Source: an uncultured Acidobacteriaceae bacterium (GTDB lineage: Bacteria > Acidobacteriota > Terriglobia > Terriglobales > Acidobacteriaceae). Taken from it: a stretch of 64,000 nucleotides of DNA. The notes beneath the pieces were generated by a model, which worked only from the letters and a program-made list of their open reading frames with translations, did not search any database and was not told the DNA's origin. A program made the translations under genes and the position numbers. Positions 34,455-45,896 of the stretch are shown one piece after another (position 1 is the stretch's first letter; each line of letters starts with the position of its first letter). The stretch lies in NCBI GenBank assembly GCA_964245315.1, contig CAXTMK010000002.1, positions 29,231 through 93,230 on the forward strand, read 5' to 3'.

Positions 34455-34519
34455 GGATTAGCGTGGGGCTTCAGCCCCACGAATAGGGCTGGCGAAAAAG
34501 AAGGGGCTTTAGCCCCGGG
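34455..34519. repeat. REP doublet (GGGGCTT(C/T)AGCCCC family), left of RAYT
   Basis: Two GGGGCT..AGCCCC palindromes; inverted counterpart at 35022-35084. Confidence 0.88.
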
Positions 34520-34544
34520 TTCGCTCAGGCGGACCCGATGGCCT

Positions 34545-34997
34545 CTATCCGATAAAGTGCTCTGGAACTGGATCGACTGAGGTGCCAGGTGCTGCCGAAG
34601 AGTAAGGATAGAATTCCGCCTCCATCACTTTGTATGCCTCAACGGGATTTTGATGAATGTACCGCTGGCAGGCGTCGAAGGCAGCGCGATCTTGAATGCG
34701 GCGGCTGTCATAGCTCCTCTCCCATACGTCCATTTTGCTCTTAAGCTGGAATGAGAAGCCGCCTTTGATGAATTGCATGGCCTTTTCCAAAGACACCTCG
34801 GGCGCGGGGGTTAGCAATAGGTGGACGTGATCGGGCATGATGACGAAGGCGTGAAGGCTCATCCGTTTCTGCGCCCGTTGAGCCGCGAGAATTTCCATCA
34901 GTAGCAATGCGTTTCGTTCGACCTGAAATAGCCGACGACGAGAGGCGGTTACGGTTGTGATGAAGTAGGTGCGGATTTCCTGTGGGGCCAAGGGCAT
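34545..34997 (-). mobile_element. REP-associated tyrosine transposase (RAYT)
   Basis: YFITT, MPDHVHLL (HUH motif), FIKGGFS, YIHQNPV; flanked by inverted REP doublets. Confidence 0.9.
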
Positions 34998-35021
34998 GGG
35001 TAGAAGAGTACAACGTCCCGG

Positions 35022-35084
35022 CCCGGGGCTAAAGCCCCCATTGTTTCTGCCCTCATTCGTGGGGCTAAAGCCCCACGCTAATCC
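35022..35084. repeat. REP doublet, right of RAYT (inverted)
   Basis: Reverse complement nearly matches 34455-34519. Confidence 0.88.
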
Positions 35085-35186: not shown

Positions 35187-36773
35187 GTGGTCGTGAGGGC
35201 AGAGCTGATTTTCGCGAGCGTGTGTCTGGTTGGATCGGGCGTGGCAATGGCGCAGCCCGGAACGCTTAAGTGCTCGGCCCTCGACGCGCTCACGCTTCCA
35301 GGCGCGGAGGTCACTTCTGCCGCATTGATTCCGGCGGGCAGCGCGATCTCGGGCGTACGTCTCGCTCCTGCAATCCTGGCCCAACTGCCCGCATTTTGCC
35401 GCGTGCGCATCACCGATAAGCCCTCCGCCGACTCCGACATTACAACCGAAATCTGGCTGCCGGCGATCGGCTGGAACCAGCGTTATCGCGGCCAGGGCAA
35501 CGGCGGCTTTGCCGGAGTGATCGACTACCCCGCAATGGCTACAGCGGTCGCGCAAGGCTACGCGACCGCCGGCACCGACACCGGCCACAGCGGCGGCGAA
35601 CCGGCCTTTGCGCTGGGCCATCCCGAGAAGGTGAAGGACTTCGGCTGGCGCGCCATCCACGATATGACGCTCGAAGCCAAGGCGGTCGTGGCGGCGTTCT
35701 ATGGCAACGCGCCGGCGCACTCCTACTTCGCAAGCTGCTCCGACGGCGGACGCGAGGCGCTGATGGAGGCGGAGCGCTTTCCGGCGGATTACGACGGCAT
35801 CCTCGCCGGAGCGCCCGCGTACAACTGGACCGGGCTGATGGCTTCCGCCGCGTCCAGGACGAAGGCAATGCTTTCCACGCCGGACAAAGTGCTTCCGGCA
35901 ACCAAGGTTCCGGCCATCGCGGCGGCGGTGAAGCGGGCGTGCGACGCAAAAGATGGCGTGAGCGATGGCGTGATCAACGATCCGCGGCAATGCCGCTTCG
36001 ACCCGGCCACGCTGCTCTGCAAGGACGGCGACGCGCCGGACTGCCTTACCGCCGGGCAGGTGGCGACGGTCAAGAGCCTTTACGCGCCGATGCTCGACAG
36101 CAACGGCAAGGAAGTGTTACCGGGCTACTCGCCGGGCGGCGAGGATGGCGGCAACGGCTGGACGAGCTGGATCACCGGCACGCCGGGGCGCGAGTCCTCC
36201 GGCCTCTTCTTCGGGCGCGGCTTCTTCGTCAACTTTATCTACGAGCGCGCCGACTGGAAGCTCGACAGCTTCGATCTCGACCGCGACCTGAAGCTGGCGC
36301 GGCAGAAGACCGGCGCGGCGCTCGACGCCGCCGACACCGACCTGAAGCCGTTCGTGGCTCACGGCGGCAAGCTGATTCTGTATCACGGCTGGAACGACCC
36401 GGCCATCCCCGCGCTCAGCACGGTGGAGTACTTCGACGGTGTCCATCGTGCCATCGGAGCGAAAGAGGCGGATGCCGCGCTGCGCCTCTACATGGTGCCC
36501 GGAATGCAGCACTGCAGCGGCGGACCGGGCGCGACGCACTTCGGCCAGAATGTAACCGATGCACGCGGCGATGCCGATGCCGATATCTTTGCCGCGCTAC
36601 AGCAGTGGGTTGAGGCAGGCAAGGCGCCGGCACAGCTAACGTCGCGGCGCCTGGCCTCCGACTCAGCAAAGGGCGACGAGTTCAGTCGTCCACTGTGCCC
36701 TTATCCCGCCACCGCAGTGTACAAGGGCGGCGACACTGGCGATGCGAAGAGCTTCGCCTGCGTGGCGCCTTAG
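35187..36773 (+). CDS. Tannase/feruloyl esterase family hydrolase
   Basis: GNGGFAG, TDTGH, CSDGGRE, DGILAGAPA, YHGWND and PGMQHC motifs. Confidence 0.93.
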   Translation: MVVRAELIFASVCLVGSGVAMAQPGTLKCSALDALTLPGAEVTSAALIPAGSAISGVRLAPAILAQLPAFCRVRITDKPSADSDITTEIWLPAIGWNQRYRGQGNGGFAGVIDYPAMATAVAQGYATAGTDTGHSGGEPAFALGHPEKVKDFGWRAIHDMTLEAKAVVAAFYGNAPAHSYFASCSDGGREALMEAERFPADYDGILAGAPAYNWTGLMASAASRTKAMLSTPDKVLPATKVPAIAAAVKRACDAKDGVSDGVINDPRQCRFDPATLLCKDGDAPDCLTAGQVATVKSLYAPMLDSNGKEVLPGYSPGGEDGGNGWTSWITGTPGRESSGLFFGRGFFVNFIYERADWKLDSFDLDRDLKLARQKTGAALDAADTDLKPFVAHGGKLILYHGWNDPAIPALSTVEYFDGVHRAIGAKEADAALRLYMVPGMQHCSGGPGATHFGQNVTDARGDADADIFAALQQWVEAGKAPAQLTSRRLASDSAKGDEFSRPLCPYPATAVYKGGDTGDAKSFACVAP

Positions 36774-36779
36774 ACAAAC

Positions 36780-36856
36780 AAAAGCAGATCCCTTACGGGA
36801 TGACAAACAACTTACTTTACTTGCTTTTGTTTGTCATCCCGTGGGGATCTGCTTTT
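36780..36856. repeat. Inverted REP pair (AAGCAGATCCCT..GGGATGACAA family)
   Basis: Long hairpin between convergent genes; further copies at 38700 and 45821. Confidence 0.85.
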
Positions 36857-38699: not shown

Positions 38700-38765
38700 A
38701 AAAGCAGATCCCTACGGGATGACAACAATTTGCTTTTGTTTGTCATCCCGTAGGGATCTGCTTTT
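38700..38765. repeat. Inverted REP pair (AAGCAGATCCCT family)
   Basis: AAAGCAGATCCCTACGGGATGACAA ... TTGTCATCCCGTAGGGATCTGCTTT. Confidence 0.85.
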
Positions 38766-38781: not shown

Positions 38782-40740
38782 TTACGCGATCAACCGCGCG
38801 GCATCCGCCCGCTTTCTCCCCTGACTCTCCACGTACACGTGCAGCAGCGACACCGCCGCCGGCGTCACACCCGGCAGCCGGCTCGCCTGCCCGAGCGTAA
38901 GCGGCCGCACGCGCTCGAAGGTCTGCTGCATCTCGCGCGAAAGGCCGCTCACCGCGCGGTAGTCGAACCACGCCGGAATGCGCATCTGCTCGGCCCGCTT
39001 CATCTTGCCGATCGAGCGCAACTGCTGCGTCAGGTATCCCGCATACTTGATCTCCGTCTCGACTGCCCGCAGTTCGTTGCGCCGCGTAGCTCGCTCGAAG
39101 GGTTGTGCCGCTTCTTCCCATGTCTCAGAATCGAGACATGGGGCACCCCGATTGATAGCCAGATCGATTGGCAGGTCGAAGATCGAGACCTCCGGCCGCT
39201 TCAGAAACTCCGCCAGCGGCTGTCCGCTCAAATTTTCCGGGTTGCCATCGAGCTTCGCCAGCACGCCCGGCGACAGCTGCTTCGCATCCAGCCGCGTCGT
39301 CTCCAGCCGCTCCTTCAGCTCCGCCGCCCGCGCCTGCCGAGCCTCATAGTCCGCCCACGCTGCATCGTCGATCAAACCCAGCCTTCGGCCGTGCGGCGTC
39401 AACCTCCGGTCGGCATTATCGATCCGCAGATGCAGCCGGAACTCCGCCCGCGAGGTAAACATCCGGTACGGCTCGTCGGTCCCCTTGCTGATCAGGTCGT
39501 CGATCAGGATGCCGATATACGCCTCGGTGCGATCCAGGTGAAACGGAGCTTCGCCACGCACCGAAAGCGCCGCATTGATGCCCGCCATGATGCCCTGCGC
39601 CGCCGCCTCTTCGTACCCCGACGTCCCGTTGATCTGCCCGGCCAGATAGAGCCCCTGCATGCTCTTCACTCGCAGGCTGCGGTCGAGCTCGGTCGGGTCG
39701 ATGGCGTCGTACTCGATCGCGTATCCCGGCCGCAGCATCTCCGCGCGTTCGAGCCCCGGGATACTCGCGACCATCGCCGCCTGAATCTCCATCGGCAAAG
39801 AGGTCGACATGCCATTCACATACACCTCGTGCGTCGACAGGCCCTCCGGCTCCAGAAAAAACTGGTGCGCCGCCTTATCCGGAAAGCGCACGATCTTGTC
39901 CTCGATCGACGGGCAATAGCGCGGCCCAATCGCCTCGATCTGCCCCGTATACATGGGCGAGCGATGCGCGTTCTCGCGGATCAGCCGCATCGTCTCCGGC
40001 GTCGTGCGCGCGATGTGGCAGGCTATCTGCCTGAGCGGGATGCTGCGCGTGCGCAGGCTGAACGGCGTAGGCTCGTCGTCGCCGGGCTGCTCCTGAAACT
40101 GCGTCCAGTCGATAGTCCGTCCATCCAGCCGCGGCGGTGTCCCTGTCTTCAGTCGCGTCCCGCGCAGACCCAGCCGCTTCAGCGCCTCGCCCAGCAGCAC
40201 GCTGGCCGGCTCGCCGCTGCGCCCCGCCGAATACTGCTGCTCGCCGCAGTGGATCAGCCCATTCAGAAACGTACCGGTCGTAACGATGGTCGCCGCCGCC
40301 CGCACCTCGCGCCCATCCCGCAGCTTCAGGCTACGGACGCATCCATGGTCGATCAGCAGATCGACAACCTCAGCCTGCTTCAGGAAGAGGTTCTCCCGCG
40401 CCTCCAGCATCTCCTTCATGCGCACGCGATAAAGTGCCTTATCGCACTGCGCCCGCGGACTCCAGACCGCCGGCCCGCGGCTGGTATTCAGCAGCCGGAA
40501 CTGAATTCCCACCGAGTCCGCGACCAGCCCCATCACGCCGCCCAGCGCATCGATCTCGCGCACCAGGTGACCCTTCGCGACACCGCCTACCGCCGGATTG
40601 CACGACATCTGCGCGATCAGATCCAGGTTCAGCGTAAACAGCGCCGTGCGCAGGCCCATGCGCGCCGCAGCCATCGCCGCCTCGCACCCGGCATGCCCCG
40701 CCCCGACGATGACCACATCGTATTGTTCCGTAAAGCTCAC
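38782..40740 (-). CDS. mnmG: tRNA uridine-5-carboxymethylaminomethyl synthesis enzyme MnmG (GidA)
   Basis: [47 protein letters not shown]. Confidence 0.98.
39117..39148. repeat. GGGTGCCCCA-family REP inside the mnmG coding sequence
   Basis: CCCATGTCTC-AGAATC-GAGACATGGG-GCACCC; translated as [10 protein letters not shown]. Confidence 0.75.
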
Positions 40741-40793: not shown

Positions 40794-40836
40794 GGGTGCC
40801 CCATCCGCGCGACGGTTTCATCGTCGCAGGGTGGGG
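40794..40836. repeat. Intergenic GGGTGCCCCA-family REP
   Basis: GGGTGCCCCATCC-GCGCGACG-GTTTCAT-CGTCGC-AGGGTGGGG. Confidence 0.75.
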
Positions 40837-41950: not shown

Positions 41951-42880
41951 TCAATCCGCTTCGATCCGCGGTCGTCTTTTCAGCTCAAGGATGGCTGCTT
42001 TGACGCTGCCGGTTCGGTCGAGAAGTGTCTCCGCGGTTGCAGGGTCGCAGCCGGTTGCAGCAACGATAATGCGGCGGGCACGATCGATCAGCTTGGCGTT
42101 GGTGGGTTGAACATTCACCATCAGGTTGCCGAGAACCGCGCCCTGACGGATCATCACGCCGGTCGAGAGCATGTTCAGGACGAGCTTGGTTGCCGTTCCG
42201 GCCTTCATGCGCGTCGAGCCGGTGAGAACTTCCGAGCCGGTGGCCAGTTCGATTGATAGCTCAGCAAGTGCCGACATGCGGGACAATTCCGCGCCGCCAC
42301 CGGCGCAGGTCAGCGCGATGGTAAACGCTCCCGCTTTGTTGGCGCAGGCAAGCGCGCCGAGCACGTAGGGTGTGCGGCCGGAGGCGGCGATGCCGACCAC
42401 AGAATCCTGCGGTGTCACAGTGTGCGCTGCGAGGTCGTTGGCGCCGGCCTCGGGTGAGTCTTCGCTGCCTTCGGACGATTTGCGCAGAGCCGAGTCTCCG
42501 CCCGCGATAATGCCCACGAAAAGGTTGGGCGGAACAGAGAAGGTAGGCGGGCATTCGCTGGCGTCGAGCACGCCGAGGCGTCCGCTGGTTCCGGCGCCGA
42601 TGTAGAAGAGGCGTCCGCCCTGCACAAATCGTGCCGAGATGGCGTCCACCGCCTCGGCGATCCGCGGCAGGGCTTCGCGGACTGTGGCGGCGACGGTTGC
42701 GTCTTCGTCGTTGATGACGCGCAGCATGTCGAGGGTGGAGAGTTGGTCGATGTGCTCCGAACGAGGATTGCGCGCCTCGGTCGGAAGCTCCGCGAGCCGT
42801 TCGGGATCGTGCGTCCCTGGGTCAAACGATGATGCCGCTTGAGTTGGGGCACCCAAAGATGTTTGCTCAGTATCGGCCAT
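41951..42880 (-). CDS. murQ: N-acetylmuramic acid 6-phosphate etherase
   Basis: TE.RNP, GAGTSGRLGVLDASECPPTF, GSTRMKAGTATK. Confidence 0.96.
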   Translation of the reverse strand: MADTEQTSLGAPTQAASSFDPGTHDPERLAELPTEARNPRSEHIDQLSTLDMLRVINDEDATVAATVREALPRIAEAVDAISARFVQGGRLFYIGAGTSGRLGVLDASECPPTFSVPPNLFVGIIAGGDSALRKSSEGSEDSPEAGANDLAAHTVTPQDSVVGIAASGRTPYVLGALACANKAGAFTIALTCAGGGAELSRMSALAELSIELATGSEVLTGSTRMKAGTATKLVLNMLSTGVMIRQGAVLGNLMVNVQPTNAKLIDRARRIIVAATGCDPATAETLLDRTGSVKAAILELKRRPRIEAD

Positions 42881-45694: not shown

Positions 45695-45896
45695 GGATTT
45701 GCGTGGGGCTTCAGCCCCACGAAGGAAGCCAATGGAAGAAGCGGGCGTTAGCCCCGGTTTCGGCCGGCACACCAGGGGCGTAGCAGTAGAGTTCCGACAG
45801 GCGTACGGCGCACCGAACAAAAAGCAGATCCCTTAGGGAGTGACAACCAAGCCAGATCAGGCGAAATTGGTTGTCATCCCGGAGGGATCTGCTCTT
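45695..45896. repeat. Composite REP cluster (GGGGCTTCAGCCCC doublet plus AAGCAGATCCCT pair)
   Basis: Matches to both families, located between convergent genes. Confidence 0.8.

Follow-up and report, generated by a model that had tools for sequence, protein, structure and literature searches.

Introduction

Palindromic repeats within bacterial genes are already described, among them the Rickettsia palindromic elements (RPEs) and intragenic copies of repetitive extragenic palindromic (REP) sequences; for the latter, a catalogue covers the superfamilies tagged GTAG and CGTC and includes Rickettsia RPE-4 and RPE-6 and repeats of Opitutus terrae (Di Nocera et al. 2013, PMC3733652). In Xanthomonas recB, different REPs occupy roughly one position (PMC3733652), and a gene for a REP-associated tyrosine transposase (RAYT) flanked by inverted REPs is the architecture described for REP/RAYT systems (PMC3733652; PMC6006769). 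Here, we analyze a hairpin located inside mnmG, which encodes a tRNA uridine-5-carboxymethylaminomethyl synthesis enzyme, on a 64,000-nucleotide stretch of DNA from an uncultured Acidobacteriaceae bacterium (contig CAXTMK010000002.1, positions 29,231 to 93,230; hereafter the window). With a probability of roughly 85%, this hairpin is a copy of a mobile REP-type palindrome family that proliferates in Acidobacteriaceae, which entered mnmG in frame and is most probably carried as a tolerated passenger. No description of such a GGGTG-headed family in Acidobacteria was found in the literature searched.

The family resembles REP/REPIN-RAYT systems (REPIN, REP doublet forming hairpins) in its imperfect palindrome of ~32 nt with a conserved 5' head, its copies, which are dispersed and mostly extragenic in relatives of the window genome, the G·T pairs of its stems, the RAYT genes flanked by inverted copies in two related genomes (L025 and L109) and its occasional in-frame genic copies, with different REPs at one gene site as in Xanthomonas recB. 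It differs in being hosted by Acidobacteriaceae and in combining one head with many stem types, at least three hairpin types being found at a single MnmG junction. Its head is GGGTG, not GTAG or CGTC, on either strand, which places the family outside both catalogued superfamilies (PMC3733652). Elements of the insertion sequence (IS) group IS200/IS605, such as IS608 and ISDra2, use a Y1 HUH enzyme of the same superfamily (Pfam Y1_Tnp) as the RAYTs associated with the repeats, and the putative substrate is likewise a hairpin beside a short conserved head. The repeats show neither terminal inverted repeats nor target duplications, as single-strand transposition predicts; in contrast to that group, they do not form the ends of an IS with its own transposase in each copy, and no target tetranucleotide was identified. 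Unlike miniature inverted-repeat transposable elements, the repeats consist of one hairpin with an asymmetric head, and filled and empty junctions of mnmG or of the neighboring murQ show no duplication.

RPE-1 measures ~100–150 bp and adds 30–50 amino acids (aa). As with RPEs, palindromic repeats of the acidobacterial family lie in frame in housekeeping genes, the added peptide is tolerated, the protein stays intact and occurrence among relatives is patchy. The parallel drawn with Rickettsia elements in an earlier reading of the sequence (the original prediction) thus stands as a functional analogy, but not as family membership: the acidobacterial element probably belongs to a different sequence family, is set apart by its length (32–47 nt, adding 10–14 aa) and by its host, a free-living soil bacterium with a large genome, and ~7% of its sampled copies are intragenic. 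Selfish hairpin repeats would add peptides to conserved enzymes of abundant soil bacteria, beyond the reduced intracellular genomes.

A hairpin in frame within mnmG

The open reading frame (ORF) that hosts the hairpin matches the Pfam families GIDA (residues 8–397), GIDA_C_1st (459–573) and SAM_GIDA_C (579–634), as well as E. coli MnmG (3CP2) over residues 2–645 (E=2e-187). Together with the sequence itself, these matches confirm the predicted in-frame hairpin within mnmG. The features concerned are the following:

38782..40740, minus strand: host gene mnmG, intact, 652 aa
39117..39148, minus strand: A-type REP hairpin, head GGGTG followed by the palindrome CCCATGTCTCG / TGAGACATGGG with loop ATTC
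39118..39159, minus strand: inserted block relative to empty-site orthologs, 14 codons (42 nt, aa 528–541), delimited by codon comparison with the orthologs P0002 and P0003

Positions 39117–39148 read CCCATGTCTCAGAATCGAGACATGGGGCACCC on the plus strand and GGGTGCCCCATGTCTCGATTCTGAGACATGGG on the coding minus strand, where they are made up of GGGTGCCCCATGTCTC-GATTCT-GAGACATGGG and fold as RNA into an 11-pair stem with a 4-nt loop. The inserted 42-nt block comprises an 11-nt leader (gctatcaatcg) and the hairpin. The hairpin encodes ten residues, G532-APCLDSETW541, with the frame kept and flanked by LKRPE (513–517) and ETEIKYAGY, so that the peptide indeed occupies the variable MnmG segment between RPE and E+KY.GY to which it had been assigned. 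This position falls in a variable linker within the first of the C-terminal helical domains, GIDA_C_1st; the match to this family extends over 115 residues compared with a profile of 96 positions, and the domain is therefore ~20 residues longer than usual exactly at the insert. As an isolated fold, the hairpin is modestly unusual (z = -2.05, 66-nt context). The strong evidence for a genuine element is its membership of a repeat family. In an AlphaFold model of the window MnmG derived from 61 sequences, residues 528–544 have low confidence (<50 at 528–530 and 538–544) and lie between short helices and a long helix at 547–565, a picture that weakly fits a flexible loop.

Filled and empty sites among MnmG orthologs

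A set of 120 Acidobacteriaceae MnmG proteins, 75–90% identical, was aligned, and the DNA of eleven of them was compared codon by codon. All close relatives are Acidobacteriaceae, the named one being Granulicella sp. WH15 (80%), which along with the near-restriction of the repeat loci to Acidobacteriaceae/Terriglobales supports the acidobacterial host that had been proposed. A search of metagenome contigs with the C-terminal half of MnmG yielded only distant relatives (~51–67% identical) and was of no help in defining the insertion. Within the ortholog set the segment is lineage-specific and patchy, the nearest ortholog of the window protein being 14 codons shorter. States at the site are as follows:

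P0002 (90%) and P0003 (88%): site empty, peptide missing; P0002 reads ...GAG TTC|GAT GAC GCG GGA CAG CCG
Window: ...GAT CTG [GCT ATC AAT CGG GGT GCC CCA TGT CTC GAT TCT GAG ACA TGG] GAA GAA GCG GCA CAA CCC
P0007, P0055, P0047 and P0044: almost identical hairpin, in the frame and at the junction of the window copy
P0031 group: stem GGT/ACC
P0054: stem CAT/ATG
P0012: decayed copy
P0015: different hairpin that shares the head but is read in a shifted frame, GGG TGC CCC ATA CAT CGC GCA CCT GGC GAT GAG TGG
P0058: third hairpin, TGC CCA ACC TTC GCG CAG CTA AGG TGG

All hairpin types terminate at the junction TGG|GAN. The same insert is present at the same codon in independent assemblies from different samples (L119, L120, L144, L145), and distant genera have a native E.F..W loop at this position. 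The downstream sequence GAAGAAGCGGCACAACCC was considered as part of the element, intergenic copies being often followed by aaagcacaaacc; it was ruled out because empty-site orthologs keep homologous codons (GAT GAC GCG GGA CAG CCG).

MnmG length varies between 604 and 705 aa in Acidobacteriaceae. Repeat inserts account for part of this variation, and recurring peptide motifs such as GAPxLxSExW and CPIHRALGDEW, which would otherwise seem to be conserved protein features, are explained as repeat-encoded. In Acidobacteriaceae proteins, such inserts can distort alignments, phylogenies, predicted structures and the limits assigned to domains.

State changes were followed on a neighbor-joining tree of the 120 MnmG proteins with the loop masked. 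In the clade of the window, empty sites are intermingled with hairpins of types A, B and C. Sister pairs differ in state, as for the window (A) and P0002 (empty), P0007 (A) and P0003 (empty), or P0062 (B) and P0064 (A); P0070 (B) adjoins the P0031 group (A), and P0014 and P0017 (B) hardly differ from P0011, where only a remnant, ASETWDE, is left. Parsimony across the 120 sequences demands no fewer than 17 state changes; when A is scored against not-A, the minimum is 9. At least three distinct hairpin types at one junction, together with an antisense copy in the MnmG of L099, make a single event impossible. Repeated insertion or replacement, filtered by selection for permissive loops, is favored for this junction. 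Close relatives show either no insert or one of three hairpin types there, and the junction offers a tractable place to study REP movement and conversion.

A dispersed palindrome family

One genome per species was scanned with the pattern GGTGCCCCAYRTCTCN{4,8}GAGAYRTGGG, which detected the A-type hairpin in at least 145 copies at at least 116 loci. In line with the original prediction, the motif is thus repeated elsewhere, as a dispersed and mostly extragenic family with in-frame copies in other proteins. Among the matches listed, nearly all loci belong to Acidobacteriaceae/Terriglobales (Bryocella, Silvibacterium, Granulicella, Terriglobus roseus, Edaphobacter, Terracidiphilus, Alloacidobacterium and many metagenome-assembled genomes (MAGs)). 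Several related genomes contain at least 3–8 independent A-type copies, and L015, L042 and L076 contain exact copies of the window 31-mer that runs from GGT to GGG.

The 145 copies among the matches listed carry G at position -1 in 98% of cases and a loop of the form GMTTYT. The upstream family consensus is c....aa.ccG, with which the window mnmG copy agrees at -11, -6, -5, -3 and -1. Two stem positions are variable, with CA/TG in 41 copies, CG/CG in 38, TG/CA in 34, a T·G wobble in 18 and a mismatch in 2. Covariation at these two pairs was assessed in 60 copies: 41 cells differ on both sides of the stem, a value reached by none of 500 shuffles, and pairing is retained in 99.8% of cells. A covariance model (R1) trained on 60 non-coding copies from other genomes matched the window mnmG copy at 39113–39159 over all 47 positions (55.7 bits, E ~1e-12) and the mnmG copies of seven orthologs with 31–56 bits, and its search of the empty-site loci L117 and L118 gave no match.

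Non-Watson–Crick stem pairs in L001–L116 are almost all T·G on the GGGTGCCCC strand (18 versus 2 mismatches, in a sample constrained by the search pattern), a hint that selection acts on this strand, in the form of either single-stranded DNA or RNA.

Tandem arrays composed of the hairpin and a near-constant spacer were also observed, namely 13 copies with a 65-nt period in L055 (4535–5280), 4 copies at 86 nt in L025 (5899–6190), 3 copies at 132 nt in L096 (7482–7780) and four copies spaced 45–59 nt in L109 (3696–3870). An array of clustered regularly interspaced short palindromic repeats (CRISPR) was ruled out for the 13-copy array of L055, because its 34-nt spacers are near-identical, with 1–2 base differences; spacers in the other arrays vary just as little, which speaks against CRISPR there too. 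A few copies, in L015, L017, L054 and L060, are located on contigs labeled Rhodanobacteraceae, Devosia, Acetobacteraceae or Actinomycetota MAGs; these four are probably mis-binned acidobacterial contigs and are no evidence of horizontal spread.

One head, many stems

The head of the hairpin recurs next to mnmG in a second element:

40794..40836, plus strand: intergenic REP of the same superfamily, in the spacer between the divergent mnmG and alpha-beta-hydrolase genes, with head GGGTGCCCCAT and a different compound stem

As predicted, the 11-nt head GGGTGCCCCAT is identical in this element and in the mnmG hairpin. Its 10-mer GGGTGCCCCA occurs three times in the window (39139 minus, 40794 plus, 42845 minus) compared with 0.07 expected, and 0 of 100 shuffles reach three; one of these heads belongs to an A-type copy, the exact 32-mer being present once. 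Across 851 kb of repeat loci, 215 GGGTGCCCCA heads were counted, 149 belonging to A-type hairpins and 66 to other stems, nearly all of which are CCCA...TGGG hairpins. These other stems include relatives of type B (GGGTGCCCCATTCATCGC...GCGATGAGTGGG), of the GG/CC variant and of the 40794 element (compare L027). One head hence serves a superfamily of hairpins, which makes the 11 nt common to mnmG and 40794 meaningful.

Association with RAYT genes

On L025, a 121-kb Acidobacteriaceae contig, a 180-aa ORF matches E. coli TnpA_REP (PDB 4ER8) with E=8e-11. An A-type REP lies 15 nt upstream of it in sense orientation, and four inverted REPs of the GG/CC variant are located at and beyond its 3' end, which they overlap. 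The same REP layout surrounds an ORF of L109 that matches Pfam Y1_Tnp (E=2e-7) and is 64% identical to the L025 RAYT. In the strict sense, the term REP implies association with a RAYT, which is seen in the related genomes L025 and L109 only and not in the genome of the window. Of the label REP that had been given to the mnmG hairpin, the repeat family and its flanking of RAYT genes in these two genomes are therefore established, and the RAYT link was not found in the window.

Copies inside other proteins

The coding context of all copies was initially judged by a stop-to-stop ORF test, which placed 67 of 145 copies in ORFs of at least 200 aa and was dropped because it is too permissive in GC-rich DNA. 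The criterion used instead was at least 60 codons with a coding signature in third-position GC content (GC3) on both sides, followed by Pfam. Accordingly, ~9 of 133 A-type copies among the matches listed (~7%) are inside genes, ~93% lying outside ORFs that are coding-like on both sides. Seven proteins with intragenic copies were scanned with Pfam; in four of them, domain matches flank the repeat on both sides or span it, and in three they lie on one side. These proteins, and the MnmG of L099, are:

Lhr helicase: GAPRLDSETW, sense; Pfam matches on both sides, with the repeat separating WH3 from WH4
Class-V aminotransferase / cysteine desulfurase: GAPYLDSEMW, sense; repeat splits the Pfam domain
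Histidine phosphatase (His_Phos_1): PTSQNRDVGHP, antisense; a single Pfam match spans the repeat
Carboxyltransferase: THVSEARHGAP, antisense; a single Pfam match spans the repeat
GH2 hydrolase: GAPRLDSETW, sense; Pfam match downstream only, repeat after an N-terminal leader
GH38 mannosidase: GAPHLDSEMW, sense; Pfam match downstream only
TreS-maltokinase (TreS-Mak): GVPHVSPLRHG, sense, third frame; Pfam match upstream only
MnmG of L099 (MAG Acidobacteriales bacterium 59-55): SHISESRYGAP, antisense; elsewhere in the same C-terminal loop, with further repeat-like inserts

A stop closes only one frame of the family consensus, GGG TGC CCC ... TTY TGA; the remaining five are open.

Origin and fate of the insert

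These data suggest a sequence of events in which an element built from the head GGGTG and a following CCCA...TGGG palindrome, as a copy of ~42 nt comprising leader and hairpin, would have entered the DNA for a variable and probably surface-exposed loop of MnmG. Divisible by three in length and free of stops in the frame used, the copy would have left mnmG intact and would now be translated. Mobilization may be ascribed to a RAYT, a Y1 HUH enzyme like TnpA_REP, acting on the single-stranded hairpin, on the grounds that two related genomes have RAYT genes with these repeats on either side. Clustering of copies at one junction could reflect selection, with only permissive loops surviving, and replacement of a resident copy, for example by conversion, through family members sharing the same head and TGGG tail.

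Several observations weigh against this account. Filled and empty junctions of mnmG and murQ reveal neither a target-site duplication nor a defined target motif. The full hairpin has no second copy within the 64-kb window, and no RAYT of the L025/L109 type was found there; the Y1_Tnp gene of the window (34545–34997, minus strand; E=1.9e-14) is flanked by a different hairpin family, GGGGCTNNAGCCCC. Any individual event may have been an insertion or a precise deletion, and as the neighbor-joining tree compares highly similar proteins, many from short metagenome contigs, tree error or recombination could inflate the number of changes. The AlphaFold model is mediocre (mean predicted local distance difference test score (pLDDT) 67.8) and of low confidence at the insert, hence the expected surface loop is weakly supported, and it is the placement in the variable GIDA_C_1st linker that stands. 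Translation of the peptide would follow from the intact frame. Finally, the hairpin may have a function at the RNA or DNA level.

The explanations that compete with a mobile passenger fare differently on this evidence. That the palindrome arose by chance or as an artefact of MAG assembly, unrelated to the intergenic repeats, is effectively refuted: the modest fold z-score (-2.05), the uniqueness of the exact 32-mer in the window and a lack of any sequencing run with the window sequence for a read-level check (best match <=12% of words) would fit it, but the 31-mer recurs identically in unrelated contigs, R1 recognizes the copy at 55.7 bits, independent assemblies (L119, L120, L144, L145) place the same insert at the same codon, and the frame is intact on either side. 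Improbable, although less so, is a hairpin retained for its function, be it as RNA (translation pause, mRNA stability or nuclease site), as DNA (protein binding or supercoiling) or through a peptide modulating MnmG/MnmE. The C-terminal region of MnmG contacts MnmE, the 11-pair stem is intact in several orthologs, and the T·G pairs on the GGGTGCCCC strand (18 versus 2), which is the mRNA strand in mnmG, fit selection on one strand. That wobble asymmetry comes, however, from a sample constrained by the search pattern, and the closest orthologs do without the hairpin, sister lineages carry unrelated hairpins or nothing at the site, stems have decayed in some mnmG copies (P0012, P0047), and the family is found in either orientation and in three frames of unrelated proteins.

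A single ancient insertion in the ancestor of the clade, inherited vertically, modified in place by compensatory change and lost precisely in some lineages, would dispense with repeated targeting. It is possible for part of the pattern, but we consider it unlikely for the whole. The A-type mnmG copies do have a common frame, orientation and AAT-CNG leader and are restricted to one clade of the tree, and P0011 (ASETWDE), P0067 and P0065 resemble decayed remnants; the leader AA.C.G nevertheless belongs to the consensus of the whole family and hence is no sign of shared descent. Types B and C are different hairpins, and the head of B is read as GGG TGC CCC compared with GGT GCC CCA in A, yet both end at TGG|GAN. 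The stem variants in mnmG (TG/CA, CA/TG, GG/CC) are common variants of the dispersed family, whereas switching between them in place takes 2–4 coupled substitutions. Moreover, the near-identical proteins P0014/P0017 and P0011 are in different states, and the antisense copy of L099 sits at a nearby but different point of the loop. The reading as a copy of a mobile family that entered mnmG is therefore retained, and the insert is most probably a tolerated passenger, not an adaptation.

A more far-reaching version, which we advance tentatively and rate slightly short of even odds, is that a RAYT-associated GGGTG superfamily, undescribed in the literature searched, repeatedly colonizes, and replaces itself at, the same codon junctions of MnmG (two sites), MurQ, cysteine desulfurase, Lhr and carboxyltransferase, with turnover so fast that sister genomes differ in type. 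If true, this would mean site-directed insertion or REP-to-REP conversion within coding DNA, and a free-living, large-genome counterpart of the Rickettsia elements would become available as a natural system in which to watch peptide insertions arise.

Other repeats in the window

In the closest relative, the syntenic contig L117 (murQ, hydrolase, mnmG) has none of the three GGGTGCCCCA elements found in the window. The spacer between mnmG and the hydrolase gene, from which the 40794 element is missing in L117, measures 291 nt in the window and 126 nt in L117. The element itself folds with -33 kcal/mol (z = -3.8), and a similar copy is found in L027. The third copy lies in murQ (41951–42880, minus strand):

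42803..42862, minus strand: in-frame REP-type insert in murQ, 60 nt, 20 codons (TSLGAPTQAASSFDPGTHDP), near the N-terminus

This insert begins with the GGGTGCCCCA head, represents a further hairpin type, with decay of the 3' outer stem in the window copy, and is missing from the syntenic MurQ of L117 (317–1186). R1 matches it weakly (10.8 bits). It aligns with an insert at residue 133 of the MnmG P0055 (L120, 3394–3447), which is of the same hairpin type.

Residue 133 marks a second insertion site of MnmG, located after window residue ~133 (~40330–40345) in the turn following EVVDLLID. Many orthologs carry repeat-encoded peptides there (e.g., GSGIRDQ..CSLSPEP), of A-type in both orientations and of several other families; the site is empty in the window and holds one insert in its closest relative, P0002. 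In L099, the MnmG frame extends over 771 codons as a stop-to-stop ORF, with a long composite insert (ADPTLRDEAAKDGAPGLSGVEDEIQGSLHSATDGEAVRRSGRDDVS) at this other insertion site.

The Y1_Tnp protein of the window is 27% identical to the L025 RAYT, and from its sequence context the gene resembles an independent second RAYT gene, bordered by repeats of its own. Palindromes of the GGGGCTNNAGCCCC type are located at 34465, 34503, 35025 and 35061 (region 34465–35074), with one more at 45705. A third palindromic family, AAAAGCAGATCCCTACGGGATGACAA and its complement, occurs at 38700–38765, 36773–36842 and 45820–45896, and a perfect 26-nt inverted repeat is present 17 nt past the mnmG stop codon.

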